Source: an uncultured virus (IMG/VR IMGVR_UViG_3300005470_000001)
Lineage: Duplodnaviria > Heunggongvirae > Uroviricota > Caudoviricetes
Reading direction: 5' to 3' (one strand)
DNA: 64,000 nt
Virus record (IMG/VR): IMGVR_UViG_3300005470_000001
A program made the position numbers and the translations under genes. This document shows positions 41,570 through 63,061 of the stretch, one piece after another. Within the stretch, counting starts at the first letter, position 1. Every line of letters starts with the position of its first letter. The notes beneath the pieces are model-generated. The model was not told the DNA's origin. It worked only from the letters and a program-made list of their open reading frames with translations, and did not search any database.

Positions 41570-41570
41570 T

Positions 41571-44981: not shown

Positions 44982-45747
44982 TTTTAATTAGTTTATTAAT
45001 TTTAACAGTATTCATTAGAGGTGTATATGTTTGAAAGAAAAATGGAACTTGTTTAGGTCCATAAACCTCTGTTGAAATATTTGCAAGATAATTGGTATAT
45101 ATTTCAGTCATTATACCAGCAATTTTCATTGCTAAAAATCTTGTCTGTTTAAATGTACATGGTGCGTCTTCTATTGTATTATCTGAAAATATATGATTAG
45201 TAAGATATTCTTCTTTTGCAATTTCATCTGTTCCAATAATGGTAAATATTTGAATTTGCTCGGCTGTCAATCTTCCATCCATATAAATACAATTTCTTTT
45301 TTCTTTTTCTGTAAGACATATAGTATCTACAGTTTTACACCATTGTTTAAATGTTAATTCTCTTGGTAACATTTTATCAAAACCAGTAAGAATGTGAGTA
45401 AATGGTAATACTGTATCTTTTTCTATTTTTGAATTTGACATATTAATAGACAAATCACAAAAATCTATAATATTATCATATACAGCTCTTACTTTACTGG
45501 TATTGATTTGAGATTTTTTAAAAAATTGACCAGCAAGATTTACTTCTTCTACTGTATCAAAATCTACAATTGTTATATTTTCACAACCAGCACTAGCAAT
45601 CGCTAGTGCCAACCATGAAGAAATCCCACCAGCTCCACCAATAAATAATTCTTGATTTTGAATTGTTTCAAACCAAGATGCATCTTTAAATCTTGTATAT
45701 TTATTTGGAACAATTTTTGTATCTACAGAATCAGATAGATCACTCAT
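44953..45747 (-). CDS. ThiF/E1-like adenylating enzyme
   Basis: GGAGGIS nucleotide-binding loop, DFDTVEEVNL, K, GFD, DGR; candidate catalytic Cys in APCT. Confidence 0.88.
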   Translation of the reverse strand: MSDLSDSVDTKIVPNKYTRFKDASWFETIQNQELFIGGAGGISSWLALAIASAGCENITIVDFDTVEEVNLAGQFFKKSQINTSKVRAVYDNIIDFCDLSINMSNSKIEKDTVLPFTHILTGFDKMLPRELTFKQWCKTVDTICLTEKEKRNCIYMDGRLTAEQIQIFTIIGTDEIAKEEYLTNHIFSDNTIEDAPCTFKQTRFLAMKIAGIMTEIYTNYLANISTEVYGPKQVPFFFQTYTPLMNTVKINKLIKNDDSSTRTT

Positions 45748-48183: not shown

Positions 48184-48195
48184 GTTACAATAAAT

Positions 48196-48234
48196 AAAAA
48201 AAGGGAATAAACAAATATATTGTCTATTCCCTTT
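48196..48234 (-). terminator. Intrinsic terminator after the Ubl-fusion gene
   Basis: Minus strand AAAGGGAATAGACAA-loop-TTGTTTATTCCCTTT continuing into a T run. Confidence 0.75.
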
Positions 48235-48256
48235 AAATTAATTAAAAGTTAAGTAA

Positions 48257-48850
48257 TTAAACCCAACCCTTCTTTTCTGCAATTTCTTTGTATTTAATTT
48301 GACAAAGATCAGGCATTGCAAAATGATTAACAATTGAGTTAACAATAGTCTCAACAGTTACTCTATCCATTCCATCAGAAGTGTATACTATATATTTATA
48401 ATCAATAAACTTACAAATATCTTCAAGACTGATTGTGTTATCAAGAAAATCTTCTTCTGATTTCATCTTTTCTTCATAATCATACCACTTGGTAAGCATC
48501 TCATTGAGTTCAAGGGTACTGAGCATTTCAAAATTACCGAAAAAATCTTCTGCTCCTTCATTATCATCAATAATGTTGTTAATAGTACGCTTAACTGCAT
48601 TATAAGGAAGCTTACTCATTGTTGCACCAGATTTTGTCTGTCTAGGATAAACAAAAAGACAGAAATCTTCTGAAGGAATAGTATCAGAATCTGAAATATA
48701 TTCTTTCTCAGATTCATCAGCAACATTAGAAGTTGACCAAGGATAACTATTACCAACAGCAGCTTTCAGCTGACCATAAGTTGTAACAGTAGAAAGAAGA
48801 TCAACAACATTACCGTTGATACCAGCTGTACTATAAATTGTAACTTTCAT
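48257..48850 (-). CDS. Putative ubiquitin-like (beta-grasp) domain of 75 aa ending TKSG, fused to an acidic C-terminal domain
   Basis: Strand-strand-helix pattern (KVTIY, VVDL, TYGQLKAAV), DTIP..FCLFV final strand, Gly75; adjacent to E2/JAB/E1. Confidence 0.6.
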   Translation of the reverse strand: MKVTIYSTAGINGNVVDLLSTVTTYGQLKAAVGNSYPWSTSNVADESEKEYISDSDTIPSEDFCLFVYPRQTKSGATMSKLPYNAVKRTINNIIDDNEGAEDFFGNFEMLSTLELNEMLTKWYDYEEKMKSEEDFLDNTISLEDICKFIDYKYIVYTSDGMDRVTVETIVNSIVNHFAMPDLCQIKYKEIAEKKGWV

Positions 48851-48880
48851 TTTTTTTATATCAAAAATTTATTAAAATAA

Positions 48881-49849
48881 TTATTTTTTTAAATTAAGGG
48901 TATTTTTTAACCATTTTTCTGTAAACTGTCTACCCTTAAAACAGTACATTTCCGAAATATCTTTTAGGTGTTTTTCAGGAGTATAAATTAAATTTGTTGG
49001 TTTGGTAATTATTTTAGCTAACTTATTACTAGCATTTATACCAGCATTATCATTATCATAAAATATTGTTATGTTATCATAGTTTTCAACAAAATTATTT
49101 ATATTATCTGGTATTGAACCTTCACTTTGTAACCATATAACATTATCTTCTATGAGATTATAAATTACTCTATAATCTTTATAACTCTTTGTGATTATCA
49201 AATTTCCATTATTTGTATATTTACCTAAAATATAATTTTTAGGTATATTTGATAACCATTTTGAATTTTTAGAATCTAATGGTCTGTAAATTTTATATTT
49301 ATTATCATTAGTAGATATAGCATAACCAATTTCTTTCAAAGATGTATGTTTCCATATATTATTTTTTCTCCATGAATAAAAGGAAATTGGAATAGTTTTA
49401 TCTTCTTCTAAATTAGCTATAGTAATACCATATCTTTCTGTCCAATAAATACTGTCTCTTTTTTCCCAATCTCTTTTTTTTGGTATTATAAGAGTTGGTG
49501 TTTTTATAGGTTTATTAAAATTTTGTATAATCTTTGGTTTTAAATTAATATCTCTTATAGCTATATTATTTTTAATATAAGAGATAGCATCTTTTAAACT
49601 TAAATCATACATTTTTACTATAGAACCAACAGCACCTATTGTACTATCTGCCCAATCTACAAAATAAATATGGTTATCTTTTTTTATAAAATAACAATTT
49701 GGATAATTATCGTTTCTAAAAGGACTAACATATTTTTTATCATAATTTGGATATTCTCCAAATACAAGTTTAAATATATCTTCTTCTGAATAATAAGAAT
49801 ATATACCATCTATAGTATTTGGTATATAAACATCGGGCTGATAGTACAT
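48881..49849 (-). CDS. DNA primase (TOPRIM)
   Basis: SPFRND..P.C, IITKSYKD, YDNDNAG and KDISE motifs. Confidence 0.8.
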   Translation of the reverse strand: MYYQPDVYIPNTIDGIYSYYSEEDIFKLVFGEYPNYDKKYVSPFRNDNYPNCYFIKKDNHIYFVDWADSTIGAVGSIVKMYDLSLKDAISYIKNNIAIRDINLKPKIIQNFNKPIKTPTLIIPKKRDWEKRDSIYWTERYGITIANLEEDKTIPISFYSWRKNNIWKHTSLKEIGYAISTNDNKYKIYRPLDSKNSKWLSNIPKNYILGKYTNNGNLIITKSYKDYRVIYNLIEDNVIWLQSEGSIPDNINNFVENYDNITIFYDNDNAGINASNKLAKIITKPTNLIYTPEKHLKDISEMYCFKGRQFTEKWLKNTLNLKK

Positions 49850-49867
49850 AGGATTTTATTTACTTAT

Positions 49868-50554
49868 TTAGTTCCACAAAACTTCAGAAGTTACACCATC
49901 AGTACCTTCTGAACCTTGAAAACCACTTTTCTGTAATTTAGCAAAATTACTACCAAGAAACCAACTAGTTCTAGTAAATGGATGAATATTATTATTATCA
50001 TCAATGTACTTGAGACCACTAGTAACATCTTTCTTCCATGAGCCAACAGGTGCTACATGAGCATGAATAAAATTACCATGCTTCAGATTTTTAGGAATCT
50101 CAAGAAAACTATTTTCTTTACCATCAGGAATATTCCACTGATATTGAAGAAAAATATCAAGAGGAACTTTCATATAATCTTTAGGTAGAAGTGAAATAAG
50201 AATTTTAACATATTCACCAAAACTAACTTTGTTTGTACCAACAGCAGCTTTAATAGCATCAGTTGTTACAAAAGGTTTCATGATATGTGTTAAAACACCA
50301 CTGAGTTCTCTCTCTTGCTTTGCTAATTCCAAAGAAAAAGATTCATCTCCTGCAACAATTTCTACATTTCCTGAGAATACTTTATTGACAGGAAACTTCT
50401 TATATTTCATTGGATTAGTATCTCCATCAATAAGAATTTCTACATTCAATGCTTCAACAGGATCATTAACCCATTCAATTTTTGTAATTTTACCAGTATT
50501 AAGACCAAACTGTTTTGTTGATCTTACTGTATCTTCGCTAAATCCGTATCCCAT
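49868..50554 (-). CDS. Probable single-stranded DNA-binding protein
   Basis: Position between AAA ATPase and primase; flexible acidic tail; no diagnostic motif. Confidence 0.4.
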   Translation of the reverse strand: MGYGFSEDTVRSTKQFGLNTGKITKIEWVNDPVEALNVEILIDGDTNPMKYKKFPVNKVFSGNVEIVAGDESFSLELAKQERELSGVLTHIMKPFVTTDAIKAAVGTNKVSFGEYVKILISLLPKDYMKVPLDIFLQYQWNIPDGKENSFLEIPKNLKHGNFIHAHVAPVGSWKKDVTSGLKYIDDNNNIHPFTRTSWFLGSNFAKLQKSGFQGSEGTDGVTSEVLWN

Positions 50555-50555
50555 A

Positions 50556-50861
50556 TTAATATGATTCTTCTGTTAATAAAATTTGTTGATTGACATCTGG
50601 ATCTTTTTCAAATATACTAATTTGATTTTCAGAAATTTCTATAGCAGGAATTTCTTCATCAAAGGTGTTTATTTGTGTATTTTCTAAATCATCAACGATG
50701 TCAATTGGTGATTTGGGTGCTCTAATTCCTTTTAATTTTTGATGAGAAAAGATTGCTTTCATTTGTGCACCAGTTAATTCAAAATCTCTTTTGATATCAG
50801 CTCTCTTTGCACCTTTAGCAACAGCATCAAAAATATCACTTAACTTTATTTGTTTTGCCAT
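50556..50861 (-). CDS. Hypothetical protein
   Basis: ORF in operon; acidic C-terminus. Confidence 0.6.
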   Translation of the reverse strand: MAKQIKLSDIFDAVAKGAKRADIKRDFELTGAQMKAIFSHQKLKGIRAPKSPIDIVDDLENTQINTFDEEIPAIEISENQISIFEKDPDVNQQILLTEESY

Positions 50862-50873
50862 ATTCTTTTATAT

Positions 50874-52536
50874 TTATTTACCATAATTTCTTACTGCATC
50901 TACTACTAATCCCATATCATTTTTGATATAAAGATCATCAAATAAACCCTGAGATTTAGATGGATATTGACCATCATTCTCAGTTACAAAAAATTTCTCT
51001 ACTTTTTTAAGAGATTCATTATATTGTGATTTACCAAATAACATTAGATCAAATTTTCCTTCAGGCGTCAAATATTCTTGACAAATATTATATAATGCTT
51101 TTAAGTTGAGTAATTATTTCAACACATTATAACTTAATATTTCTATTAAGATTCGACTATATCTTTATTTTTATATGACCAAACAAAACCATAAGCAGTT
51201 TTTAATCTACCAGAACAACAAGACCATATATTAGATTTTAAATAACCTAATTCCTCTTCTATTTGTCCTAATGTAAACCATTCTTTTATTAGTTCATTTT
51301 CTCTACTAAATTGTAATATAAGATACTTAGATTTTTTAATTCTAGTTTCCATACTCAATTTTTTACCAATATTACATTGTTTTATTTTCTCTTTTGTACT
51401 ATCACTAAGTATTTTTCCTTTGTGAGAATTAGAAATTTTTAACTTTGTAATTTCAGTTCTAGATTTACCTTTTAAAGAATTAGATATTTTTTCTTTGTGT
51501 TCTAATGACATTTTATAGCCTAATGTCCCAGATTCACCACCAATAGAATGATTACATAAATTTGGATATATAGAAATAAAATATTGTTCTCTTTCTATCC
51601 AATTTTCACATTCTTCAATTAATTCAATTAATGGTTTTTTATTTTTTTCTAAAAGAGAATATATCCAACAAGAAACATGAGATGTTCTTGATTTTTTTGC
51701 TTTTGTAATATGTCCTGAAAGTCTCTTTTTTAAAGATTCTTTTGTTTTACCAATATATTTTATATCATTGGTTTCAGGATCTATTAATTTATATATTTTG
51801 GTCATTATTTTTACTTTAATAGTTAATATTATAATAAAAATAGTAAAAAATACTCACTGTTTCCAAATTAAGTAATTAGTTTAATTTGTACTCTCCCACA
51901 ACAGGAGATAGTCTGTGAACCTTATTCCTTTAAGGAATCTTGGCTGCTGATTGCCCAATTCTTACCTCTTTTACTATACTATAATCATTACTGTTATAGG
52001 GAGTGTGTAAGACTCTAAGGGTGTTCCAGTCAATTAAATGAGTAATGGCCCAAGATGACCATCTTACCTGTAGTCTTCATACGATAACTAATATCACCAC
52101 TATTATTTACTTTATAATCTTCTGAATGAGCTAAACAAATAATAATTTTTGTTTTAGCTAATTCATCTAATGCAGTAAATATCAAACCCATATCATAACC
52201 AATTTGTTTTGGCGTATCCCAACCATTTTTCATAGCATTAGCCATGTAAAAATCTTGCATAATATAGTTAAAATCATCTATAACTATAATATTAAATGGT
52301 GAGTTCAATAGGTTTTTTAATACTTGTACAATAACTTTTGCATTACTTGTGATGATTCTATTACCATCTTTTAAATTATCAGGTGTTGTAACTTTATAAT
52401 TAGGTGTCCATTTGGCAACACAACTAATTAAAAAAGTTTCTTTTGGATCAATACCTTTAATACCTAATTTTTCATTTTTAAGTAAAGAAGCAGTTTTACC
52501 AAAACCACTCTCACCTAATATAAGAATTTTTATCAT
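50874..52536 (-). CDS. AAA/Sak4-like ATPase, two exons (52536-52058 and 51081-50874), 228 aa spliced
   Basis: Walker A GESGFGKT, Walker B IIVIDD; splicing gives MKTTGKMV|QEYLTPEGKFD in frame. Confidence 0.88.
51082..52057 (-). mobile_element. Group I intron in the AAA ATPase gene (976 nt)
   Basis: P1 AUGGU/GCCAU with U-G at the splice site; AAUCAGCAG, GUUCACAGACUA and AAGAUAUAGUCG core elements; terminal G. Confidence 0.92.
51146..51805 (-). CDS. Intron-encoded GIY-YIG homing endonuclease with NUMOD3/NUMOD1 repeats
   Basis: KIY..YIGKT..R..H, E, N motifs; HKEKISNSLKGK repeats; C-terminal KTAYGFVW. Confidence 0.9.
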   Translation of the reverse strand: MTKIYKLIDPETNDIKYIGKTKESLKKRLSGHITKAKKSRTSHVSCWIYSLLEKNKKPLIELIEECENWIEREQYFISIYPNLCNHSIGGESGTLGYKMSLEHKEKISNSLKGKSRTEITKLKISNSHKGKILSDSTKEKIKQCNIGKKLSMETRIKKSKYLILQFSRENELIKEWFTLGQIEEELGYLKSNIWSCCSGRLKTAYGFVWSYKNKDIVES

Positions 52537-53642
52537 TCTTTTTTATTTATTGTCTTAAAGTAATTAATATTACCTGCCATTTCAGTACACATATGTTTTG
52601 GACATTCTGTATCTCTACTAAATACTAAATGAATACTTCTATAATTTGGATATTGTGATAAATCAATACCAAAATGATTATCCAAATTATATTTTTCATT
52701 TCTAGGATTAAACAAAGTAATTAAATAATTTGTATCTTCACCTATATTTGAAGTATCCTTAATATCTTCTGCTGTAGGATACAACATTTCTTTATTATAT
52801 TTTATTCTATCTATAGCAGCAATATTTCTATTAATATGAATAACATTAACAAATGTAAATCCAAACAAGTTTCTCATTTCAACTTGATAAGAAGACATTT
52901 TATCAACATTTTCTTTCATACTATATCCACGTTCTCTATTTATTCTTCTAACATGATCTGTTATTATGATTGTATACTTATTAGGATCATTTGGTGTATA
53001 ACCTGATATTCTTTTTTTCGGAATATCTAAATTTCCTTCTCTTATTGTATAATCTTCATATATAAGTTGACCATTTTTTTGAGCATAAGTATAAAGATAA
53101 CTTCTTATACCAGTGGGATTATTATTTTCTTCAACAAAATCTACAACACCTTCTTTTATCTTTATACCTTTCTCATTATATTCACCAAATAAAGGAATTA
53201 ACTTTTCATGATATATTTTGAACAGTTTTTCTTTATGATCAGCAGAAATAGGAATTAAATTATTATTGTCATCCATTAATCTACCAGCTAAATATCTGGG
53301 AGACATTTGGTATATTTTATCATTATATCTAAAATTGAATATTTTATACAATTCATACATATAATAAGCCGCAAATTTAAATTCTTTTTCAACTCTTGGT
53401 ATTTCTAATGAGTAATAAATCCAATGAACATTTGAAGCTCCTTTAAGCATCATTTCTTCATATGGTTTTAATAAAAAACAAAAATCAACAAAGGTAGTTT
53501 TTCCAGTTTTAGCTTCACTAGCAATACAATAATTACTTCTTCTTTGTATACCATCTATTGCTTTATCAAGTCCTGCTAAACCAGTAGTAAGACCAATATT
53601 TTTTCCTGCTTGTCCTTCAAGAAATTTTCTTTCAAAATTCAT
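52533..53642 (-). CDS. DnaB-like replicative helicase
   Basis: TGLAGLDKAIDG, SEAKTGKTT, YSLE, IIITDH and HINR motifs. Confidence 0.8.
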   Translation of the reverse strand: MNFERKFLEGQAGKNIGLTTGLAGLDKAIDGIQRRSNYCIASEAKTGKTTFVDFCFLLKPYEEMMLKGASNVHWIYYSLEIPRVEKEFKFAAYYMYELYKIFNFRYNDKIYQMSPRYLAGRLMDDNNNLIPISADHKEKLFKIYHEKLIPLFGEYNEKGIKIKEGVVDFVEENNNPTGIRSYLYTYAQKNGQLIYEDYTIREGNLDIPKKRISGYTPNDPNKYTIIITDHVRRINRERGYSMKENVDKMSSYQVEMRNLFGFTFVNVIHINRNIAAIDRIKYNKEMLYPTAEDIKDTSNIGEDTNYLITLFNPRNEKYNLDNHFGIDLSQYPNYRSIHLVFSRDTECPKHMCTEMAGNINYFKTINKKE

Positions 53643-54184
53643 TACATCATATCATAAGTTTTCGAAGATTTGGTTTTACTTAATTCAAGATATTCTTTAA
53701 GTCTGGATTGAGGATCAGGACCATTTTTCTTAATAAAATAATCTGCTCTTTGTAAATATCTTACATCATTTATTGTATCAAGATATGCTTTAGTTGCTTT
53801 CATAACATCATCAGCTCTTACTGAAGGGTTTTCTTGAAAGAACTTTATCATTTTCTTTTTTACATTATCAAAAGTACTTGCAGCATCTTTTCTCATTAAT
53901 CTAAATAGATTTTGATACTCATATACCCATTCCCAACCATCATCTTTAATATCATCATTATCAAACAAGGGTATATGCCACTTTATTGAATTTGTTTTCA
54001 TGTCATATTCATAAATACCAGATGCATTTAATTGCTTAACTGCTACTGTTATTATATTACAAGCATCATATAAAGGTTCAAAATCAACATTGTGATATAT
54101 ACCCAGGAGACATAATAGGCCTGTATTCAGACCTATATTTTGTTCTTCCAATGTTTGTATAATTTTTTCATTAATATTAGTCAC
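53642..54184 (-). CDS. Hypothetical replication-region protein
   Basis: 180-aa ORF translationally coupled to the helicases. Confidence 0.6.
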   Translation of the reverse strand: MTNINEKIIQTLEEQNIGLNTGLLCLLGIYHNVDFEPLYDACNIITVAVKQLNASGIYEYDMKTNSIKWHIPLFDNDDIKDDGWEWVYEYQNLFRLMRKDAASTFDNVKKKMIKFFQENPSVRADDVMKATKAYLDTINDVRYLQRADYFIKKNGPDPQSRLKEYLELSKTKSSKTYDMM

Positions 54185-55340
54185 AAATAACGTTTAGATT
54201 TTTGGTTACACTATTTACCCAATCTTCATCTACTGTGTTTTGAGCACATAAGATAAATATTTTACTTAAACAGTCTTTACCTTCCTTCAATCTTAAGGTT
54301 CTACCTATCCTTTGTGTAAGTATTAAATCAGATGCATTTACTTGCATTATAATTGCATTATCTACATCAGATATATTAACACCTTCATTTAAACCATTAA
54401 CACAAGCAAGTGTATTAATTTCACCATCTCTAAATTTTTGTAAATGAAGTCCTTTTTCTTTACTTTTTTTACCAGAGTGATAAGTATGAAAATGCATTGC
54501 TTCAGCTGTAGCTATGCTATTTGCAAAAATCAATGTACGTTCATTTTTCTGATCTATTTTAAGCAAAGTTTCTTTTCCTATGATTATTTTACTATTTAAA
54601 TTAGATAAAAATTTTGCTCTCATTAACCTAAGAAATTTTAATTTTTGTACATCATAATGATTACAATATACAGAATTATCTATTTTTTCTTTGAGAACAT
54701 CAATTGTATTAGTAATATAATCATATTGACCTCTTTCAGTTACATAAAATCTTTTACTACTATTACCAGCGGGTATATCTTTTATTGTGTTATTCAACCA
54801 AACAGGTATAATCTTAATTTCATAAGGAGAAATAAGACCTAATTTGACAGCTTCATCTAATGGAATATTAGCAATAGTATTAAAGTTATAAACTTTTAAT
54901 AAATATTGTTTCATAGGATCTTTAGGAAAAGTTGCTGTCAACCCCAATGCATGTTTGATTATGTTGTTTTCAAAGACAATCGAATTGAATTCTGTAGTTC
55001 GATGAATTTCATCAAATATTACAAGATCAAAAGTCATGTTTTTAATTTTTGTCAATGAAGCATAACATTCAATTCTAATGTTTTTTAACATAGTATTTGT
55101 TATGTTCCATTTTTTTAATTCATTAGGCCAATCAATATCTCGTAATTCAATAGTTGGAATTACAATTAAAATATTAGCTTTTTTTTTAACAAAAAAAGTT
55201 TTTAAATAATCAATAGCAATTTTAGATTTACCTACACCTGTAGCTGCTATTACAAGATTATTTGTACTAGGTGACATTATTAAATTATTAACAATTTCAC
55301 TTTGTATTTCTTTTTTAGTTTTCTTCATTGTCTTCTCCAA
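54177..55340 (-). CDS. Superfamily 2 (DExH) helicase
   Basis: ATGVGKS, DEIH, LTAT, LNEGVNI and QRIGR motifs. Confidence 0.92.
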   Translation of the reverse strand: MEKTMKKTKKEIQSEIVNNLIMSPSTNNLVIAATGVGKSKIAIDYLKTFFVKKKANILIVIPTIELRDIDWPNELKKWNITNTMLKNIRIECYASLTKIKNMTFDLVIFDEIHRTTEFNSIVFENNIIKHALGLTATFPKDPMKQYLLKVYNFNTIANIPLDEAVKLGLISPYEIKIIPVWLNNTIKDIPAGNSSKRFYVTERGQYDYITNTIDVLKEKIDNSVYCNHYDVQKLKFLRLMRAKFLSNLNSKIIIGKETLLKIDQKNERTLIFANSIATAEAMHFHTYHSGKKSKEKGLHLQKFRDGEINTLACVNGLNEGVNISDVDNAIIMQVNASDLILTQRIGRTLRLKEGKDCLSKIFILCAQNTVDEDWVNSVTKNLNVICD

Positions 55341-57204
55341 TTAACAGTTTATTAGCTTTATCTATGTAAAAATCATAATTTATATTTTTAAATAATTCAC
55401 TTTTAATTTCATCATTTAAATAATTACAAGGAGTACATAAATAATCCTTCTGTATATTGAATTGACGTTTATTCATTATTTTTAACAAAGTATATCCAGT
55501 ATTAGTAACTAAATATCTTGTTAATCTTGGTAATTGAATAATATCATCACCATTAATACCAATTAAACTTGAATCTTTATTAAGTTTTGTTCTTAAAAAG
55601 AAATCAAATATATCATTGTGATTTTTAATAAAATCTTCAATTGGAATATTATAAAGATAATATGCTTCTACAGCTTTTGGAACTATTAATCTAGAATGAT
55701 CTTTGTATAATTCTCTTTCTATTGTATAAGGACCTTTTTGTTTAACTTTACCATCTTCATATATTGCTATATATGAATTACAATTAGAAATTAATATTTT
55801 ACTATACGTATTATATTCTAATTGAAGTTTTGTTAATTTTTCCCATGATTTACAAATATCATAAAACTTATTAATTTCATTTGATGGTATAATAATTTCT
55901 CCACCATCAGTATTTATCATTAATAATTTACTATTTGATATATCCATTAATTGTTCACATAACATACTAAGAAGTAATTGACCATTCAAAGTAATGGACA
56001 TTGTAAATTGAGGATCATACAATGAAGAATGTATAGAATTAGATTTACCGTATGCACCATTTAATGCTAATTTGTATAATTCATTTCTACTATCACTTTT
56101 AGGATATTTTAATCTTTCATTATATATATCTTCATAAATTTTACAAAAAGTATTACCTAAATGTAAAGGAAATAAGTTGTTTCTAATACTAATATTTGGA
56201 TACAAAGATTTAACATCAAAAGTCATTATTTTGTAATTTTCATTACTATAATAAATACCTTTTTCAGCACCATGTATCCCACCAGTCCCAAATGTAAATT
56301 CAAAACCTTTATGTACTACATTTAATTTCTTAAGATTTGTCTTTTTAAAAATCTTAATATTAATATTAGGTTTTAATTCTTCTATTTCTTCTAATGGTAT
56401 TTCAGTAAAAACACTTTTTGTTTCTTTTATAATTTTTTTGTTAAACCAAGTAAGTATATTTTTAAATGGTTCATGTTCAAATGCTATATAAGGAAAAATA
56501 ATATCTTTTAATATGATTTCTTTCCTATATGTTTGACCTAAATCTTCTTTATTTAAATGTTCTTTAATTCTTTTGATTAAAATATATTCACCTAATTTAG
56601 GATTATTATAGTTTAAAAGATTTGTTTTATACAAATAACTAGATTTAAATCTATCATCAATTAATGTTTTAGTTCTTAAAAACAATTCATATGTAGCATT
56701 GATATCATTAACACAATATTCTTTAACTACATCTATTTCATTTAATTCTAATACTTTATCATGTGCATAAGGTAATTCTTGAACATTATTCATTCTCATA
56801 GAAAATTCAAGACCTTTTAACGAAATCATTTTAGCTTTATTATCATAATGATTTATTTTTAATAAATCTAACTGTATGATTTTATTATTTGCATGAACAA
56901 ATGATGAATTAATTAAAGTATTAGCTTTGTTTTTAAGATTATTAGTAAGAATATCTGTATACATTAATGGATATTTTTTCATTAAATCTTCAAAATGATT
57001 TAACAAAGGCCAGTCAAATTTAAGAGTATTGAAACCAATCATTATCTTTTTTTTATCGTTTAAAAAAGCTAATAATTCTTTTCTTTCATCTTTAACTGGA
57101 CTTATTTCAAAAGCAAATATTTTACTTTCTTTTTCAGTAATATCTTTACATAATAGGTAGAAAAAGTTAGTAAATATTTCAATATCATATATTATTTTTT
57201 TCAT
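55315..57204 (-). CDS. Family B DNA polymerase
   Basis: Exonuclease YDIE, FD, YCVND; polymerase DVKSLYP, KLALNGAYG and NTDG. Confidence 0.92.
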   Translation of the reverse strand: MKKIIYDIEIFTNFFYLLCKDITEKESKIFAFEISPVKDERKELLAFLNDKKKIMIGFNTLKFDWPLLNHFEDLMKKYPLMYTDILTNNLKNKANTLINSSFVHANNKIIQLDLLKINHYDNKAKMISLKGLEFSMRMNNVQELPYAHDKVLELNEIDVVKEYCVNDINATYELFLRTKTLIDDRFKSSYLYKTNLLNYNNPKLGEYILIKRIKEHLNKEDLGQTYRKEIILKDIIFPYIAFEHEPFKNILTWFNKKIIKETKSVFTEIPLEEIEELKPNINIKIFKKTNLKKLNVVHKGFEFTFGTGGIHGAEKGIYYSNENYKIMTFDVKSLYPNISIRNNLFPLHLGNTFCKIYEDIYNERLKYPKSDSRNELYKLALNGAYGKSNSIHSSLYDPQFTMSITLNGQLLLSMLCEQLMDISNSKLLMINTDGGEIIIPSNEINKFYDICKSWEKLTKLQLEYNTYSKILISNCNSYIAIYEDGKVKQKGPYTIERELYKDHSRLIVPKAVEAYYLYNIPIEDFIKNHNDIFDFFLRTKLNKDSSLIGINGDDIIQLPRLTRYLVTNTGYTLLKIMNKRQFNIQKDYLCTPCNYLNDEIKSELFKNINYDFYIDKANKLLIGEDNEEN

Positions 57205-57230
57205 TTGGTTTAACTTCCAAATTGTTAAAA

Positions 57231-57575
57231 TTAAGATTCAGTATTTATTATATCAATTTTAACTTTAGTAATACCATCAATACCAATTAATTTAGCTGCT
57301 TTTTTAGATAAATCTATAATTCTACCTTTTACAAATGGACCTCTGTCATTAATTCTAACTTTAATTGACAAATTATTTGAAAGATTTGTAACAGTTACTA
57401 TTGTATTAAATGGTAAAGATTTATGTGCAGCAGTTAAAGCATGCATGTTAAATTTTTCACCATTTGCTGTTTTTCTTCCATGAAATTGTTTTCCATAATA
57501 AGATGCGATACCAATTTCTGCACTTGCACTCAAAGGTATTAATAGAATTAAAAAAGATATAATTGTTTTTTTCAT
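57231..57575 (-). CDS. rlpA: RlpA-like lytic transglycosylase (DPBB) with signal peptide
   Basis: [34 protein letters not shown]. Confidence 0.92.
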
Positions 57576-57684
57576 AAATAGTTATTTAGTTATAAATACT
57601 CAATAATTGATTTAATTATTGTTTTATTTGTAAATGTAGGGAAGGAGGGAATCGAACCCTCACGGATTTCTCCAGTGGATTTTA

Positions 57685-58474
57685 CTTACCACTATAGCAG
57701 TTAGCTACCAGACTTTCTTGTCTATTTACAATCTATTCGTCTGTTTGTGGTCTGGACTATATCTTTACCATATCATTTCTGATTTAGGTATGCAGTACAT
57801 AGTCTCTGAACCTTCCTCATGCAAAAATATAAACGACATTTTTGTTTAGAGGCTCGGATGCTGATTGACCAATATCAGTTATTTTTATAACATTTGAGTT
57901 CGTCATTTCTAACCACTCTTTAGTTAACTGATCTCTAAGGCTATCCCAGCAATTCTCTGCATTACTACTATACAGTTTCCTATATAGCGACCATTGTTGT
58001 TGAAGAAAACGATGTAAAGCATTGTGTTTGTTTACTGACATTATCATAAAGTTAGATAATATATTGTGTTCAGGATTTTCATCAATATGATGAATAAAGA
58101 TATCTTTTGATAACAAGAATCCTAAATCAATAATTGCTTGTCTACCTAAAGTATTACCTTTAGTACTCCTACTTACTTTATTATAATTTTCAGTATTCTT
58201 TTTTCTACATTTTAAATGAGTTAATTGGTTTGGTCTATTCATAATCATTGATTCACCACATAATGAACAAACTCCTATACCATAACGTTTTTTAGTATTC
58301 TTGTTATAGTATTTTTTAACTCGTTCTCTATTATAGATTTTAGCACACTCTTTACATCTTTTTCTTTCAACTACTTCTTCTTTGCCACAATCAATACACA
58401 TTTTCATATTTAGATAAGTTTAAGTTAAAAACTAAATATACAAAAATGGTAGACAATAACAAAAGAAAAGTTTT
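57685..58474 (-). mobile_element. Group I intron in the tRNA-Leu anticodon loop (790 nt)
   Basis: AAUUGCUGGGA, AAUCAGCA, GUUCAGAGACUA and AAGAUAUAGUCC core elements; preceded by U, ends in G. Confidence 0.9.
57817..58407 (-). CDS. Intron-encoded HNH homing endonuclease
   Basis: CxxC pairs; IHHIDENPEHN..N..HNALH; 3' part runs through the ribozyme core. Confidence 0.85.
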   Translation of the reverse strand: MKMCIDCGKEEVVERKRCKECAKIYNRERVKKYYNKNTKKRYGIGVCSLCGESMIMNRPNQLTHLKCRKKNTENYNKVSRSTKGNTLGRQAIIDLGFLLSKDIFIHHIDENPEHNILSNFMIMSVNKHNALHRFLQQQWSLYRKLYSSNAENCWDSLRDQLTKEWLEMTNSNVIKITDIGQSASEPLNKNVVYIFA

Positions 58475-58519
58475 AGTCCACAGCGTCTACCAGTTCCGCC
58501 ACAACCCCATTAATATTTG

Positions 58520-58647
58520 TTCTTCAGGGTGGATTCGAACCACCAAGACTCAGTTTATCTCAACTGCCACATTGTCTAATTGTCTCATCTAAGTCTTTTA
58601 TGTGGTAAATGAATAAGACAATGCTCTACCATTTGAGCTACTGAAGA
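58520..58647 (-). ncRNA. tRNA-like RNA with 78-nt insert replacing the anticodon/variable region
   Basis: Perfect acceptor UCUUCAG/CUGAAGA, D arm GCUC/GAGC, T arm GGUGG-UUCGAAU-CCACC. Confidence 0.75.
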
Positions 58648-58686
58648 ACCAAATTATATATAAGACCACCATATATATATAATAAG

Positions 58687-58760
58687 TAGGCCCTGTAGGA
58701 TTTGAACCTACGACCCAGCGATTATGAGTCGCTTGCTCTAACCAACTGAGCTAAGGGCCT
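58687..58760 (-). tRNA. tRNA with CAU anticodon, probably Ile2 (lysidine type)
   Basis: Cloverleaf; AGCGA-CUCAUAA-UCGCU; body resembles bacterial tRNA-Ile2. Confidence 0.88.
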
Positions 58761-59060
58761 TTATCTAAAGGTATCTCTACTCAAGAGAGATTTATTACAA
58801 ACACCGCGTGTTAAACTTTAGTTACAAAATTTTGTTTCTAATCTATATTTAAAGTGAGAGTAACAATGACCATAATTAACATGTTTTTTTATTTTAAATA
58901 CATTGTAAATATCTTTAAATAATACAGTAATGTTTTTCATTGTAATATACCTTGTTTATAGAATTAAAATTTTCAAAGAACAATTAAGTGGTATCCCTGG
59001 TCCCTGAGCCAGTGATGGTAATATTTCAACCCCAGTTGTTTTAACACCAGATACCACAAG

Positions 59061-59134
59061 AGCTTCCTGAGGGACTCGAACCCCCAACATCCTCATTACA
59101 AGTGAGGTGCTCTACCAATTAAAGCTAAGGAAGC
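59061..59134 (-). tRNA. tRNA-Thr(UGU)
   Basis: Cloverleaf; CCUCA-CUUGUAA-UGAGG. Confidence 0.92.
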
Positions 59135-59171
59135 AAAAATGTAGTATATAAAATCATTTACATACTACATT
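59135..59171 (-). terminator. Long AT-rich hairpin plus T run directly upstream of tRNA-Thr (terminator or processing site)
   Basis: AATGTAGTATGTAAA / TTTATATACTACATT inverted repeat. Confidence 0.45.
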
Positions 59172-59241
59172 AATAATAAATAATTTAAACTTATGGCGAA
59201 TATTATTGAAGTATTATCAATTCCAGCTCGAAGTTTTAAAA

Positions 59242-59508
59242 TTATTTCACAACAAAATCTAAATCTTCAACTTTAAAACATTTAAAACGATTACTGTTTT
59301 TTTCAACATGGGTTTGTTCTTCGTCTTCAAAATGTGTATTTTTAAAATCAAAAGGAGTAAAATTTAATGTATGATCTACAAAATACAAATCTAGAAAATA
59401 ATTAGTATCATTTTCAACAAAATCTGTATTATCTCTTTTTATAGCAATTACATATTTATCTTTCAATCTAACTAATGCTGTTGCATTATAAGTGGTTATA
59501 TCTGACAT
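59242..59508 (-). CDS. Hypothetical protein
   Basis: ORF in operon. Confidence 0.55.
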   Translation of the reverse strand: MSDITTYNATALVRLKDKYVIAIKRDNTDFVENDTNYFLDLYFVDHTLNFTPFDFKNTHFEDEEQTHVEKNSNRFKCFKVEDLDFVVK

Positions 59509-59515
59509 TTTATTT

Positions 59516-60025
59516 TTATTTTTTTAAATTATTAATAACAATATCTAATAAAACAGGTGTATAATTGATACATTCTACACTAACATTAAAATGATGTTTT
59601 CCCATATTTAATTCAGGATGAACTTCTGCTGTATTATGCATATGACCATGTATATTATAAAAAGAAGTATTATTTAAATTTTGTATAGGTTCATGAGATA
59701 AAATAACATCATTTATTATAATAGGATATTTATAATACATGTAAAATAAATCAATATAATATTGATCTTTTTCATTATCATGATTACCTTTTATTAATAT
59801 AATTCTACCATTTAATGCATTTATAATTGAAGTAACATGCTCTTTATTAATAGACATAGCTATATCACCTAAATGATATACAATATCATTTTTTTTGACA
59901 ACAGAATTCCAATTATTAATTAATTCTTTTGTCATAATATCTACATTTTCAAAAGGTCTATTACAATATTTAATTATATTATTATGTCCAAAATGTGTAT
60001 CACTTATAATATATGTTTTATTCAT
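59516..60025 (-). CDS. Calcineurin-like metallophosphoesterase
   Basis: SDTHFGH, HLGD, GNHD and IHGHMH motifs. Confidence 0.92.
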   Translation of the reverse strand: MNKTYIISDTHFGHNNIIKYCNRPFENVDIMTKELINNWNSVVKKNDIVYHLGDIAMSINKEHVTSIINALNGRIILIKGNHDNEKDQYYIDLFYMYYKYPIIINDVILSHEPIQNLNNTSFYNIHGHMHNTAEVHPELNMGKHHFNVSVECINYTPVLLDIVINNLKK

Positions 60026-60137: not shown

Positions 60138-60314
60138 TTAATCCCCATCTCCAGCTATTGAATCTAAATGACAAGTACAGTATTTTATAGTACTCATTTT
60201 ATACTCAATATACTTCAAAATATCTTTTCTGAGTTCATCAATAGTTTCATTGTGACTTTGTTCACAAGGACAATTAAACCATTTTGCTTTATTAAAAATT
60301 TCTTCTAAATTCAT
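60138..60314 (-). CDS. Small hypothetical protein (58 aa, not in ORF track)
   Basis: ATG..TAA ORF MNLEEIFNKAKWFNCPC.. filling the gap, preceded by AAGGAG. Confidence 0.5.
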   Translation of the reverse strand: MNLEEIFNKAKWFNCPCEQSHNETIDELRKDILKYIEYKMSTIKYCTCHLDSIAGDGD

Positions 60315-60936
60315 TTTTTCTCCTTGTTTTTATAGGAACATATTTTCTTTGAAATACACCAAAACATACATTAAAAGAACCATCATCACATTTTTCAACA
60401 TATGCTTTAGGTGAACGTTCATTTTTTATAGCATATTGAAATGCTTGATATTCAAGATCAACAATTCTTTTTTCCAAAGCCATGATAAGTAAATCTTTAC
60501 CATTACTTGCATCCTTACAGCATTCAAGTTGTAGTTCTATATCTGCAATCCTATCATACAACTTTTTATTCGCCTCATAATCTTCAACTTCTTCACGCCA
60601 TGTTGATGGTTTATCGGATACCACTTTGTCTATAGGCTCTTTGAGTGGTTTCAAGTTTCGCACAGGACGAACCCTGAAGTTGAAGTCCTTGTTGTAGCTG
60701 CTCTGGTTGCCATTGGAGAAGTACTGGTTCCACGCGTTGTCAGCATCGTACTCCGACGAACTCCAGTAGTAGTAGGCTCCAAAACCACCAATATTTTCTT
60801 GCTCAAGGTACATCTGATTTAGCTCATCTTTTGTCGGCAACCGCCAACCATCACCAAGTGCTTCGACAACTTTAATAGCTTTGTCCCACGAGTAAGAGCC
60901 ATCGAGGTCTTTGTGGTAGATCTCAATATTTAACAT
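60292..60936 (-). CDS. DUF1566/Lcl-like (C-type lectin fold) domain plus coiled coil
   Basis: GWRLPTKDEL..YWSSSE..AW..F..G..VRPVR. Confidence 0.8.
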   Translation of the reverse strand: MLNIEIYHKDLDGSYSWDKAIKVVEALGDGWRLPTKDELNQMYLEQENIGGFGAYYYWSSSEYDADNAWNQYFSNGNQSSYNKDFNFRVRPVRNLKPLKEPIDKVVSDKPSTWREEVEDYEANKKLYDRIADIELQLECCKDASNGKDLLIMALEKRIVDLEYQAFQYAIKNERSPKAYVEKCDDGSFNVCFGVFQRKYVPIKTRRKNEFRRNF

Positions 60937-61085
60937 TCTTCCTCCTCTTTATAATATGCAGGTATGTGATTTTCATAAACAATAGCCGAACCACTTTCCA
61001 AATATCCACTGATTTCGTAATGTTTTGTTCCGCTTGAGAACATTATCTTCAGTGTGTTCCAGATCTTTTTCATTTTTTTCTTTCT

Positions 61086-61325
61086 TTATTTTTTGATTTC
61101 AAGATCACTAATTGTGTCACCATACACTGTGATGGTGTGAGTATGTATATGTCCATATTGATCTTTACAACGCACCTTGATGTGACGTGAATGTACGATA
61201 CTGTTAAATCCTTCTAGATCACGTACTTCATCAACGGTGATTTCGGTGACATTATGAATGTCCATTGATGATACTGTCATTATTGTCTTTATTAATTTAG
61301 TTATCTCCGTTTTCATATGCGCCAA
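61086..61325 (-). CDS. Hypothetical protein
   Basis: ORF in operon. Confidence 0.5.
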   Translation of the reverse strand: MAHMKTEITKLIKTIMTVSSMDIHNVTEITVDEVRDLEGFNSIVHSRHIKVRCKDQYGHIHTHTITVYGDTISDLEIKK

Positions 61326-61491
61326 CTAACCAAGGTAGTCCTGCAAATATAAGCATTACAAGACCACCAAGCAATGCACCTTCTAATGTTGAACTTTTGT
61401 CAAAACCAAGTGCTAATCCACCAAGTACACATAAGATAAGTACTCCAGTTCCTGGATGATCTTTAGCTCCTCTAATGATTCGCTTAATCAT
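61297..61491 (-). CDS. Small two-TM membrane protein
   Basis: Two hydrophobic segments; AGGAGG upstream. Confidence 0.6.
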   Translation of the reverse strand: MIKRIIRGAKDHPGTGVLILCVLGGLALGFDKSSTLEGALLGGLVMLIFAGLPWLVGAYENGDN

Positions 61492-61510
61492 ATATTGTCC
61501 TCCTAATATA

Positions 61511-61741
61511 TTAAAAACAAAGTGCTACCGCAGCTGCATAATAATGTGTATCGAAACCGTTCCGGCACAGGTACTCATCCATCAGTGTTGCGAGCGCCTT
61601 TTCAAGTTCTGCAATGCGCAGGTCTTTGCTCGCTATCCTGTCGTGCAGTTCATCAATGACAACCCTCCGCAGTGTGTGCGGACAATTGACCTCAAGTGCT
61701 GCTGCGTATGCCTGCTCAAGTTCTGCAATACGCTTCTTCAC
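61511..61741 (-). CDS. Coiled-coil protein (RIAELE repeats); start uncertain
   Basis: Reading frame is open upstream to a TAG at 61793-61795. Confidence 0.5.
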   Translation of the reverse strand: MKKRIAELEQAYAAALEVNCPHTLRRVVIDELHDRIASKDLRIAELEKALATLMDEYLCRNGFDTHYYAAAVALCF

Positions 61742-61792
61742 TGCTTCTTCAATGCGCGAGATGCTGTCGTTGTGTAGTCGGGTGAACTCTGT

Positions 61793-62152
61793 CTATTTCT
61801 CCCCCTTGTTTTCAACAGCCCTTTCAAATCTTTTGATCCAAGCTTCACGGTCTTCTTCCCATTCATTCAGTGCTTCCAGCTTTCCCTCAAGCACCTCAAT
61901 CTGTAGCTTCTGCATATCAACTCTTCCTTCTAACTTTATAACCTGCCCATCCTTTTCAAGCGCACCCTCTATGTGCCTTAATACTCCAAGATGATATCCA
62001 TCCTCAAAGGCATCAACGACCTCAGCCTCAAGCTCTGCAATGCGATTCTGAACCTCAAACGCGTCAATGTATGGCAACGCTGGAGCCCCTTGCTCCGAGT
62101 CATACACATCCGCTGTGCCATTATTATACTGTACTACCCATATCGTTTTCAT
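61793..62152 (-). CDS. Coiled-coil hypothetical protein
   Basis: AAGGAGGAG ribosome-binding site; RIAELE motif. Confidence 0.65.
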   Translation of the reverse strand: MKTIWVVQYNNGTADVYDSEQGAPALPYIDAFEVQNRIAELEAEVVDAFEDGYHLGVLRHIEGALEKDGQVIKLEGRVDMQKLQIEVLEGKLEALNEWEEDREAWIKRFERAVENKGEK

Positions 62153-62814
62153 TTCTCCTCCTTGTTGAATTTAAAATCTCGCACAGGACGAGCCTTGTAG
62201 CTGTTGATCTTGTAGTTGAAGTACTGGTGGCCAGTGTAGAAATACTGGTTCCACGCGAAGTCAGCATTGTATTCCGACGAACTCCAGTAGACATAGGCTC
62301 CAAAACCGCCAATAGCTACGCGATTTTTGTACATCTGATTCAGTTCATCCTTGGTCGGCAACCTCCAGCCTTCGCCAAGCGCTTCGACCACCTTAACTGC
62401 CTCATCCCATGTGTAAATTCCACCAAGGTCTTGTGGATAGACCTCGAACTCAAGTTCTTGATACAGTGTTGTCGTCATTTCTCCTCCTTGTTCCTCCTTG
62501 TTTGGTTTTAAATCTCGCACAGGACGAACCCTGTTATAGATGCTTTTGTAGGCGTTGCCATGGCCGCCAGTGTAGAAACACTTGAGCCACGCAATCTCCT
62601 CGTCGTACTCCGACGAACTCCAGTAGTAGTAGGCTCCAAAACCGCCAATTTCTTCTTGCTCCAAATACATCAGCTCCAGCTCTTTTTTTGTTGGTAGTCG
62701 CCATCCGTCGCCAAGTGCTTCGACAACCTTAACTGCTTCATCCCATATGTAAAATCCTTCGAGATCTTGTGGGTAAACCTCGAACCCAAGTTCTTGATGT
62801 AGTGCTGTCGTCAT
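62149..62814 (-). CDS. Tandem two-domain DUF1566/Lcl-like protein (likely start 62814; internal start 62478)
   Basis: Two copies of WRLPT.EL..YWSSSE..AW..RPVR, each preceded by AAGGAGGAGAAATGACGAC. Confidence 0.8.
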   Translation of the reverse strand: MTTALHQELGFEVYPQDLEGFYIWDEAVKVVEALGDGWRLPTKKELELMYLEQEEIGGFGAYYYWSSSEYDEEIAWLKCFYTGGHGNAYKSIYNRVRPVRDLKPNKEEQGGEMTTTLYQELEFEVYPQDLGGIYTWDEAVKVVEALGEGWRLPTKDELNQMYKNRVAIGGFGAYVYWSSSEYNADFAWNQYFYTGHQYFNYKINSYKARPVRDFKFNKEEK

Positions 62815-62830
62815 TTCTCCTCCTTGTTTA

Positions 62831-63061
62831 TTACGAAAGGTTAAATGCTTCAATCTCTGCACTTGTTAGTTTTTCTAACGCAGACTCACGAAGTTTTATA
62901 CGTTTAATCTCTTTTTTTATATAAGGAGATATATTTGTTTTCGTGTTATATTGCTTTCCATAAGCATCAACACCCCAACCACATTCATCGCAGTGCCAAT
63001 CATTGTGTCCTTCCATTATGTAAGACCCACAATTCTTACAAACAATTACATCGTGTCCCAT
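62831..63061 (-). CDS. Small Zn-ribbon protein
   Basis: CKNC..CDEC. Confidence 0.6.
   Translation of the reverse strand: MGHDVIVCKNCGSYIMEGHNDWHCDECGWGVDAYGKQYNTKTNISPYIKKEIKRIKLRESALEKLTSAEIEAFNLS

Follow-up and report, generated by a model that had tools for sequence, protein, structure and literature searches.

Three lectin-like domains encoded in one island of an uncultured phage carry the hypervariation signature of a diversity-generating retroelement (DGR), an element in which a reverse transcriptase (RT) copies a template repeat (TR) into the variable region (VR) of a target gene. The window analysed here, a single stretch of 64,000 nucleotides, belongs to the Crassvirales, with matches to CrAss_Ring_1 (E 8e-36), CrAss_Ring_2 (E 1e-12) and crAss_MUZ (E 9e-40), each of which exceeds its cut-off. 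The original prediction for this locus, made from the letters alone, described targets of adenine-specific mutagenesis and left three sources to choose between: a remote phage DGR, a host DGR, or captured relics with later drift. The question is what wrote these regions, from which template, and from where.

Three lectin genes in a GC-rich island

Three paralogous DUF1566/Lcl_C domains with identical flanks lie on the minus strand at 60.3-62.9 kb, and in all three copies the variable stretch occupies the 3' end of the Lcl_C/DUF1566 (PF07603) domain. The features of the locus are:

58686..58760, minus strand: phage tRNA-Met (CAT), located with ARAGORN
60292..60936, minus strand: copy A gene, from the open reading frame list, Pfam PF07603
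60640..63640, minus strand: GC-rich island, 36-45% GC in a phage of 21-31% GC (composition profile)
60660..60789, minus strand: VR-A, 130-nt variable-region core, from the gapless alignment to the Chlorobium TR described below
62149..62481, minus strand: copy B DUF1566 unit, having a start and a GGAGGAGAAATG ribosome-binding site of its own
62181..62310, minus strand: VR-B, 130-nt variable-region core
62485..62814, minus strand: copy C DUF1566 unit, reading through into copy B
62517..62646, minus strand: VR-C, 130-nt variable-region core, more decayed than the other two

The copy A frame (60292-60936; PF07603 E 1.3e-12, score 48.5 bits where the cut-off is 34.9) encodes an N-terminal DUF1566/Lcl_C domain at residues ~13-93, fused in frame to an AT-rich, coiled-coil-like C-terminal extension of ~115 amino acids. 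Copies C and B share a single open frame (62149-62862) with no stop between them and two Lcl_C stretches (PF07603 E 1.4e-21, 77.3 bits against the same cut-off of 34.9), and the protein collection lists a 221-aa form of this protein, P0067. Weak Fib_succ_major co-matches stand beside DUF1566 in Pfam, and the PHROGs match is phrog_4245, a family without assigned function. At the amino-acid level the VR design is ..AW.Q.F..G.Q....K....RVRPVR. A profile built from four lectin units matched PDB 8Q4E at residues 36-103 (E 5e-11), the sole solved chain below E 0.01; this is the C-terminal domain of Lcl (a collagen-like protein from Legionella), which has a C-type-lectin-like fold with DUF1566, as the profile match suggests for the phage units. 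Lcl itself is presented in the available part of the source as a trimeric adhesin for glycosaminoglycans, borne on a collagen stalk, and is not described there as DGR-diversified (PMC11162425). The island also holds small coiled-coil and zinc-ribbon frames (Pfam) and strong Shine-Dalgarno sites, and a relative of the phage, G002, has an island of its own.

The three stretches are VRs of C-type-lectin-like DUF1566/Lcl_C domains, of the 'CLec2' or 'category d' type of DGR target. [quoted passage not shown] The small size of the phage proteins, which the original prediction had counted as unusual, is accordingly nothing out of the ordinary; the other half of that remark, on their place in a non-structural region, holds for the early-gene setting in a crAss-like phage. 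As in category d (PMC5758913), the phage genes encode a DUF1566 domain whose C-terminal end carries the VR. They depart from it in standing without adjoining RT, Avd or TR, in lacking a signal or lipoprotein sequence, in lying within the early-gene island of a crAss-like phage, and in having VRs that are not at the protein end, because all three frames continue into a further domain or gene.

Variable regions and a matching Chlorobium template

Exact matches to TACTGGAGTTCGTCGGA number three, at 60752-60768, 62273-62289 and 62609-62625, all on the minus strand, where chance predicts 0.03 and none of 100 shuffles gave that many. CGTCCTGTGCGA is exact at 60658, 62179 and 62515 (0.13 expected), with one unrelated two-mismatch match at 2977. 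These counts confirm the shared flanks claimed for the three DUF1566-like regions. The codon triplets listed at the same time are all present, at codons 75, 77, 78, 79, 82, 83 and 85 of the codon table, and over the last ~27 codons change does fall almost only at codon positions 1-2, while C is retained at the third position. Across the 60 scaffold codons of copies A, B and C, variable sites at codon positions 1, 2 and 3 number 17, 11 and 36, against 13, 16 and 8 across the 27 VR codons (Fisher p = 8e-4 for the difference in codon-position bias). When the copies are compared in pairs, the scaffold shows 16-18 synonymous and 14-17 non-synonymous codon differences, and the VR 1-2 synonymous and 15-18 non-synonymous ones. 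With a fourth copy included (relative D, from contig L004), third-position C occupies 63 of 108 VR codons versus 55 of 240 scaffold codons. Framework nucleotides, synonymous sites included, are common to ten different VRs taken from the window and from related contigs, and the hypervariable NNC codons of these VRs take up to four states at positions 1-2. Among the phage paralogs, scaffolds are 67-81% identical and VR non-adenine sites 85-93%.

A scan of genome contigs with a 17-mer returned 56 loci, about the chance number for 596 Gb by our own estimate; the analysis kept just the loci that the VR profile confirmed. Three positive controls (L009, L049 and L057) each combine an RT with an AAC-rich TR and VRs of like design. 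The locus used to test the phage VRs is a canonical cellular DGR in Chlorobium phaeovibrioides BrKhr17 (L092), in which every component is present:

6888-8117: target gene
8121-8531: avd-like gene
8696-8828: TR
8864-10120: RT

Mismatches to this TR were split into 45 template-adenine sites and 85 other sites. VR-A, the best preserved of the three, is mismatched at 14/45 adenine and 1/85 other sites (p = 9e-7), VR-B at 16/45 and 5/85 (p = 3e-5), VR-C at 20/45 and 10/85 (p = 5e-5), and relative D at 19/45 and 5/85; the Chlorobium DGR's own VR, as a control, gives 23/45 and 0/85. The mutagenesis of AAC codons at adenines that had been proposed is thereby upheld, with mismatches enriched at the adenines of an independently found TR in all three copies. 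The restriction of differences to template adenines that marks a VR is found here against a heterologous TR, that of L092.

Of the templates available, this TR suits all three phage VRs best, and they depart from it at 1-12% of non-adenine sites; none of the other Chlorobiaceae TRs tested fits copies B or C better, and a second Chlorobium TR (L066) itself differs from that of L092 at 11/85 non-adenine sites. At VR non-adenine sites phage and Chlorobium are 88-99% identical, whereas the 150 nt upstream of the VR are only 34-43% identical (ungapped) between the phage copies and the Chlorobium target, so the VR was not simply inherited with the gene. That the phage VRs were written by a DGR is, on this evidence, close to certain.

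Drift, stability and the search for a writer

Comparison with four contigs from three further assemblies (L012, L019, L011 and L027), as consensus sequences in which minority variants are invisible, shows VR-A, VR-B and VR-C unchanged or with single-site differences. One of these contigs, L027, represents a recombinant strain with a diverged neighbouring gene, yet its VRs are near-identical, and a C/B recombinant protein (P0001) keeps VR-B exactly. Between contigs L004 and L005 there are 17 differences in 12,312 sites, and the lectin gene has none of them. A candidate microdiversity pair, L016 and L022 (codon TGC versus CTC), was rejected since the two overlap by just 326 bp at 94% identity. 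Among near-identical assemblies, VR cores hold 4 differences in 1,005 nt versus 1 in 19,385 nt elsewhere, a ~77-fold enrichment (p = 3e-5), and two of the four fall at a single template-adenine site, 60774; this hot spot counts against a frozen state.

Later drift at non-pattern sites, also foreseen, appears as AT-biased non-adenine changes in copies B and C: 4 of 5 in VR-B and 7 of 10 in VR-C run from GC to AT, and such changes are mostly private to one copy. The VRs of relatives form a continuum of non-adenine mismatch from 1% to >30%. A CGTCCTGTGCG element is conserved at the VR 3' end, and the sequence beyond it diverges. The GC hairpin that follows the Chlorobium VR has a dG of -13.3 kcal/mol; the best in the phage copies reach -3.7, -8.7 and -6.2. 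A downstream hairpin is known to be required in only a few DGRs. The BrKhr17 VR, with 0 non-adenine mismatches and a strong downstream hairpin, is in these respects unlike the phage VRs, and its target, a protein of ~400 aa with an N-terminal hydrophobic stretch and repeat domains, differs from the phage genes.

The absence of an RT from view, remarked on at the outset, stands: there is no RVT_1 match in the 43 window frames of >=90 aa, and among stop-to-stop frames of >=120 aa in the window and contigs L001-L057 the only RTs are those of L009/L010, L049 and L057. None was found in L047, which reaches 5,067 bp past the window end, or in G001, G002 (a 75-kb syntenic relative) and G003. In the window, searches with blastn-short and an nhmmer VR profile detected the three VRs and no further copy resembling a VR or a TR, and in L047 and loci derived from G002 they detected nothing AAC-rich, so that the proposed check for an AAC-rich TR beside an RT is negative for the 64-kb window, 5 kb beyond it and the 75-kb relative. 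No Avd-type family appears in the Pfam output, which took in frames of <90 aa within the island only.

The DNA examined contains no complete DGR of RT, TR and Avd, and ~26 kb of the genome lies outside it. Genome size is put at ~95 kb, as P0067 is encoded on a 95,080-nt contig and G001, at 49 kb, is rated 52% complete. Only L047 (+5,067 bp) and L012 (+166 bp) extend the window, and exact scans of viral contigs with a stretch from window positions 181-224 and another from the far end of L047 returned nothing further. A TR 21-mer occurred in 95 stretches of viral contigs; 80 loci were fetched, and only L167 matched the VR profile, weakly (53.7 bits). Relatives of the Chlorobium RT in viral contigs came to one locus at 37% identity, and of its best 120 relatives in the protein collection (53-97% identical, P0069 being at 97%) none lies on a 95,080-nt contig, although a divergent RT would escape this search. 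A blastn search with the island among phages in GenBank found nothing beyond a 56-nt match of no relevance.

Origin of the variable regions and its meaning

The reading that we favour, at a probability of about 0.5 for the statement as a whole, is that the VRs were DGR-written from a template near the Chlorobium TR by a writer outside the visible phage DNA, and are now orphan and frozen. Each VR is an adenine-mutagenised copy of one ~130-nt TR that was nearly identical to that of the BrKhr17 DGR. A DGR RT would have reverse-transcribed the TR RNA with errors at template adenines, the resulting cDNA then taking the place of the 3' end of each lectin domain. The origin of the VRs by adenine mutagenesis is evident from the pattern, and retrohoming would be the act that placed them. 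The phage would at present express, from its early-region GC-rich island, a fixed set of three small binders with different tips, of which copy A was probably written most recently and copy C first, the tips slowly decaying under phage AT mutation pressure. A parallel exists in Treponema denticola, where isolates without RT and TR retain VR-bearing 'leftover' targets (PMC4891356, as far as available): in both cases targets persist without the core DGR, with VRs that differ from a TR in another genome mostly at adenines. The T. denticola leftovers are chromosomal lipoprotein genes matched by a TR of the same species (PMC4891356), whereas here phage genes are matched by a bacterial TR.

Several observations pull against frozen orphans. 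VR-A agrees with the TR at 84/85 non-adenine sites, and so is a recent product when measured against the pace of drift. Phage copies whose scaffolds differ by 20-30% share a homogeneous framework, which requires a TR to have been within reach all through diversification of the gene family. In addition, G002 is without the same module and ~26 kb is unseen, which together leave room for a phage-borne RT. The options first put forward are narrowed rather than settled.

A serious though unlikely candidate for the writer is a DGR of the host acting in trans, in which chromosomal RT, Avd and TR of Chlorobiaceae would occasionally retrohome into phage lectin genes during infection; the phage would replicate in green sulfur bacteria and gain diversification without carrying the retroelement. 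A cellular DGR may, though we doubt it, write into the virus now, or have done so repeatedly over the history of the phage gene family, furnishing it with hypervariable intracellular binders. The near-perfect fit of VR-A, at all but one non-adenine site, to a cellular C. phaeovibrioides TR from which the L066 TR is itself further removed speaks for such a source, as do the GC content of the L092 cassette, which is that of its own genome (about 0.54-0.56), and its target of cell-surface type. The phage tRNA-Met is 95-97% identical to that of Chlorobiaceae, and mostly 79-88% identical elsewhere in the phylum; all 122 of 122 Chlorobiaceae genomes match window positions 40001-60000, nearly all through this tRNA, which in a phylum-wide sample reaches E <= 2.5e-27 in 38/40 genomes of the family versus 3/161 others. 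No Chlorobiaceae protein matches the N-terminus of the phage scaffold (best identity 61%, in the C-terminal part only; 76/122 genomes with a match), so the phage genes are not recent captures, yet their VRs are Chlorobium-templated. Both long phage records are without a detected RT, and action of avd, TR and brt in trans from a plasmid is reported in the available part of PMC5758913. This case is weakened by the gap between a phage of 21-31% GC and a Chlorobium locus of about 0.5-0.6, extreme for a virus-host pair, by the lack of VR turnover among the assemblies compared, by uncorrected drift in copies B and C, and by the missing strong hairpin; tRNA and island could, besides, be horizontal imports rather than host markers. 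The available part of PMC7416419, on viruses of green sulfur bacteria, contains nothing bearing on phage lectin VRs.

More doubtful is an active DGR of the phage itself, with RT, Avd and TR in the remaining ~26 kb, for example beside a structural target, and the lectins as non-adjacent targets. Precedent comes from crAssphage LMMB, likewise crAss-like with DGR-type hypervariation; LMMB has a whole cassette and a tail-collar fibre target (PMC7290462, as far as available), in contrast to the small targets in a non-structural region and the unseen cassette here. Targets that are not adjacent but lie within 50 kb are common in DGRs associated with phages, according to the available part of PMC5758913, and the almost drift-free VR-A and the hot spots at VR cores between assemblies would suit a working element. 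Set against this, no RT was found in 69 kb of the phage or in 75 kb of its syntenic relative, none of the best 120 Chlorobium RT relatives lies on a 95,080-nt contig, and just 1 of the 95 TR 21-mer stretches (L167) weakly matches the VR profile. Copies B and C, moreover, carry 5 and 10 non-adenine mismatches where genuine DGR VRs have 0-1, and the VRs are stable across assemblies.

Origin without any DGR, by ordinary paralog divergence and diversifying selection on a binding surface, is very improbable: high dN/dS at contact residues is frequent in paralogous binders, but this would leave unexplained the excess of third-position C in VR codons (63/108) of a phage of ~25% GC, the framework identity at synonymous sites where scaffolds differ at 36/60 third positions, and the adenine-specific split of mismatches against an independent TR. 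Misjoining of Chlorobium-like DNA into the phage contig, which a GC jump of ~20 points and the breaks of other assemblies' contigs inside the lectin genes might suggest, has a negligible chance of being correct, given that the island's two junctions with AT-rich phage DNA both recur in independent contigs of other assemblies (L012, 59970-64000; L027; L047; L019), that G002 has its own island, and that the scaffolds are unlike any Chlorobiaceae gene found.

The orphan reading, and the template match on which it draws, bear on how DGRs are counted. Catalogues usually start from an RT and an adjacent TR-VR pair, and targets without a local RT are consequently invisible to such surveys; the phage genes described here are recognisable as DGR products only through a matching template in a different organism. 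If they are relics, they represent DGR output that a lytic-type phage has fixed as a small repertoire of paralogs, and display its rate of decay under AT pressure. If instead the host's element has written them, retroelement-driven diversification would cross the boundary between virus and host, as cross-genome, host-to-virus DGR targeting, and models of DGR target ranges and of phage-host arms races would change. The phage VRs and the Chlorobium RT-Avd-TR cassette provide a concrete sequence pair for a direct test of homing in trans.

A GC-rich island of lectin genes in a crAss-like phage

The window belongs to a crAss-like phage, with Pfam matches above cut-offs to CrAss_Ring_1, CrAss_Ring_2 and the crassvirus muzzle protein. 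Its composition profile lies mostly at 21-31% GC and climbs to 36-45% between about 60.6 and 63.6 kb, an island in which every gene is on the minus strand, several have strong GGAGG-type ribosome-binding sites upstream, and three Lcl_C/DUF1566 (PF07603) domains, copies A, B and C, are found by Pfam. They are encoded as follows:

60292-60936, minus strand: copy A gene, a lectin domain followed by an in-frame AT-rich extension of about 115 aa
62149-62862, minus strand: copies C and B in a single open frame, with no stop codon between the two

Copies C and B each have a separate GGAGGAGAAATG start signal, and the C-B product of 221 aa is recorded in a protein collection; the frame of copy C runs into copy B across the ribosome-binding site of B. 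The lectin domains of both ORFs, and that of relative D (L004 5863-6660), lack a stop codon directly after the variable region (VR), and coiled-coil-like extensions continue the reading frames of copy A and relative D. In three other relatives (L014, L016, L022) a stop immediately follows RVRPVR(D/N)(L/I). Misassembly of the island is ruled out, as both of its junctions with AT-rich phage DNA recur in contigs of other assemblies (L012, L027, L047, L019).

About 5 kb past the window end at 64000, a second small GC-rich islet (L047 1-300), where that contig ends, encodes a paralog of the 47-aa ORF 60930-61073 preceding copy A. AT-rich phage-like metagenome contigs of 28-37% GC (L020 5720-7051, L021 553-1090, L014, L040, L024, L030 and L039) commonly contain two to four small DUF1566 genes in tandem, with decayed VRs, and no reverse transcriptase (RT) was found in the flanking DNA covered.

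Elsewhere in the window, a single plus-strand ORF of 5,161 aa (15912-31397) has no Pfam match in either half and a 32% identical counterpart in G002, a related phage record. A minus-strand nucleotide-metabolism cluster (42481-42867, 41571-42494, 38766-41099) comprises a dATP/dGTP diphosphohydrolase N-terminal domain (E 4e-32), ThyX and a ribonucleotide reductase, the last occurring in G002 as three ORFs with intervening ORFs. The replication module contains free-standing HNH and GIY-YIG/NUMOD3 homing-endonuclease-like genes (37350-38060 and 51146-51805, minus strand).

Adenine-directed variation and a template in Chlorobium

The original prediction, that the three copies carry hypervariation of the type made by diversity-generating retroelements (DGRs), described near-identical flanks around codons differing mainly at positions 1 and 2 with third-position C kept. 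Each part of that description holds: each flank motif has exactly three occurrences, well beyond chance expectation, and every codon triplet listed is present. Variable sites are distributed 13/16/8 over codon positions 1/2/3 in 27 VR codons, as against 17/11/36 in 60 codons of the upstream lectin scaffold (p = 8e-4), and third-position C occupies 63 of 108 VR codons compared with 55 of 240 in the scaffold. Position-3-heavy variation is the usual picture for paralogs under purifying selection. Pairs of VRs differ by 15-18 non-synonymous versus 1-2 synonymous codons. Framework nucleotides, synonymous sites included (for example AGT TCG TCG, GCG TGG, GGC, CAG, AAG and CGT CCT GTG), are common to ten distinct VRs of the window and related contigs; around them, positions 1 and 2 of the hypervariable NNC codons take as many as four states.

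A 17-mer scan of one genome per prokaryote species returned 56 loci, by estimate about as many as chance would give in a collection of that size, so only loci confirmed by a VR nucleotide profile were kept. The top profile match, scoring as well as the VRs themselves, is an AAC-rich repeat of Chlorobium phaeovibrioides BrKhr17 (L092 8696-8828). It is the template repeat (TR) inside a textbook DGR cassette of target, avd-like ORF, TR and RT, the target being a protein of about 400 aa that ends in DUF1566 and has a VR of its own (7981-8112). Mismatches to this TR were counted over a gap-free 130-nt core.

Table. Mismatches to the Chlorobium TR (VR; template adenines mismatched; other sites mismatched; p)
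Phage copy A; 14/45; 1/85; 9e-7
Phage copy B; 16/45; 5/85; 3e-5
Phage copy C; 20/45; 10/85; 5e-5
Relative D (L004); 19/45; 5/85; 1e-6
Chlorobium's own VR; 23/45; 0/85; 2e-13

In this test, set beforehand as decisive for DGR origin, mismatches are enriched at template adenines in all three copies. Over the 150 nt upstream of the VR, phage genes share only 34-43% identity with the target in Chlorobium, whereas non-adenine sites within the VR are 88-99% identical. The VRs were therefore copied from a template and did not simply descend with the gene. We put the probability that the phage VRs are DGR products at about 0.95.

DUF1566 VRs are described as a recognised class of DGR target, about half being short DUF1566-only proteins (PMC5758913). 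Published examples of orphan DGR targets come from Treponema denticola (PMC4891356), and DGRs in crAss-like phages are already known (PMC7290462). The literature covered yielded no account of a crAss-like phage with orphan VRs, nor of any match between phage VRs and a cellular TR.

Present state of the variable regions

The leading reading, held at about even odds, is that the VRs are now frozen orphans. In favor, the same VRs recur in three other assemblies, in four contigs altogether. Differences from the window number 2 in 4,031 nt for L012, 1 in 8,239 nt for L019 and none for L011 apart from a 39-nt insertion elsewhere, at 61793; L027 is a recombinant strain with a diverged neighboring coiled-coil gene, yet it has one non-adenine difference in VR-B and only a 1-nt gap in VR-A. 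VR-B is exactly kept in the C/B recombinant P0001, a single-copy lectin, and in the lineage of relative D two contigs (L004 and L005) show 17 differences over 12,312 sites, all of them outside the lectin gene. Non-adenine mismatches number 5 in copy B and 10 in copy C, mostly copy-private and mostly GC to AT, compared with 0-1 in genuine DGR VRs, and none of the other Chlorobiaceae TRs tested explains them better. Relatives form a decay continuum, and the phage VRs lack an equivalent of the strong GC hairpin downstream of the Chlorobium VR.

Against freezing, VR-A is nearly drift-free, and the framework is homogeneous across phage copies despite scaffold differences of 20-30%, so that a TR must have stayed accessible while the gene family diversified. 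Differences between assemblies also concentrate in VR cores, with an enrichment of about 77-fold (4 in 1,005 nt versus 1 in 19,385 nt, p = 3e-5, a count that omits two recombinant tracts of L027). Two of the four fall at 60774, a template adenine in VR-A, where the window has T and L012 has A, and where L027 has a 1-nt gap that would frameshift copy A; near-identical assemblies have T or C at 60745 (copy A) and G or A at 62232 (copy B). We consider a host DGR acting in trans on the phage VRs unlikely.

Strain-level mosaicism is seen within the island (61540-62168 against L027, 61793 against L011, and P0001); in L027, some 400 bp that run from the end of ORF 61793-62152 into the start of ORF 61511-61741 are replaced by 45 bp flanked by diverged tracts.

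The writer, the template source and the host

The prediction that no RT is in view was borne out: none was found among the 43 window ORFs of at least 90 aa, and the window contains no VR- or TR-like repeat beyond the three VRs. No DGR writer was found in L047, which extends the window by 5,067 bp and encodes only small AT-rich early genes there, in G001, which falls inside the window, or in G002, a syntenic 75-kb record in which most of the shared genes are 30-55% identical at the protein level. G002 differs in having a single lectin gene of its own, in a GC-rich islet at another slot. Positive controls for the RT and TR searches were L009, L049 and L057, each of which combines an RT and a TR with one or two VRs built on the same design. 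A phage-encoded DGR would have to lie in the roughly 26 kb of the approximately 95-kb genome beyond the DNA searched, which, by synteny, would be mostly the capsid-portal-terminase module, also missing from the G002 record. Scanning viral contigs with a 21-mer of the TR turned up nothing close and one weak match to the VR profile, and none of the best 120 relatives of the Chlorobium RT is on a 95,080-nt contig, a weak test given that a divergent RT would escape that list. We consider such a DGR somewhat more improbable still than one acting from the host.

The phage tRNA-Met (58686-58760, minus strand) is 95-97% identical to that of Chlorobiaceae and 79-88% identical to that of most other genomes of the phylum; in a phylum-wide sample, it matches at E <= 2.5e-27 in 38 of 40 Chlorobiaceae genomes versus 3 of 161 others, making it a possible host or donor marker. 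The tRNA-Thr (59060-59134) finds matches at just 83-88% over 50-68 nt. VR- or TR-like DNA of the phage type is present in 49 of 122 Chlorobiaceae genomes and DUF1566 proteins in 76, among which the N-terminal scaffold of the phage lectins has no match. Although the large GC gap between phage and Chlorobium counts against a green sulfur host, these findings and the TR match together make it likely that the template came from a green sulfur bacterium, which may also be the host of the phage.
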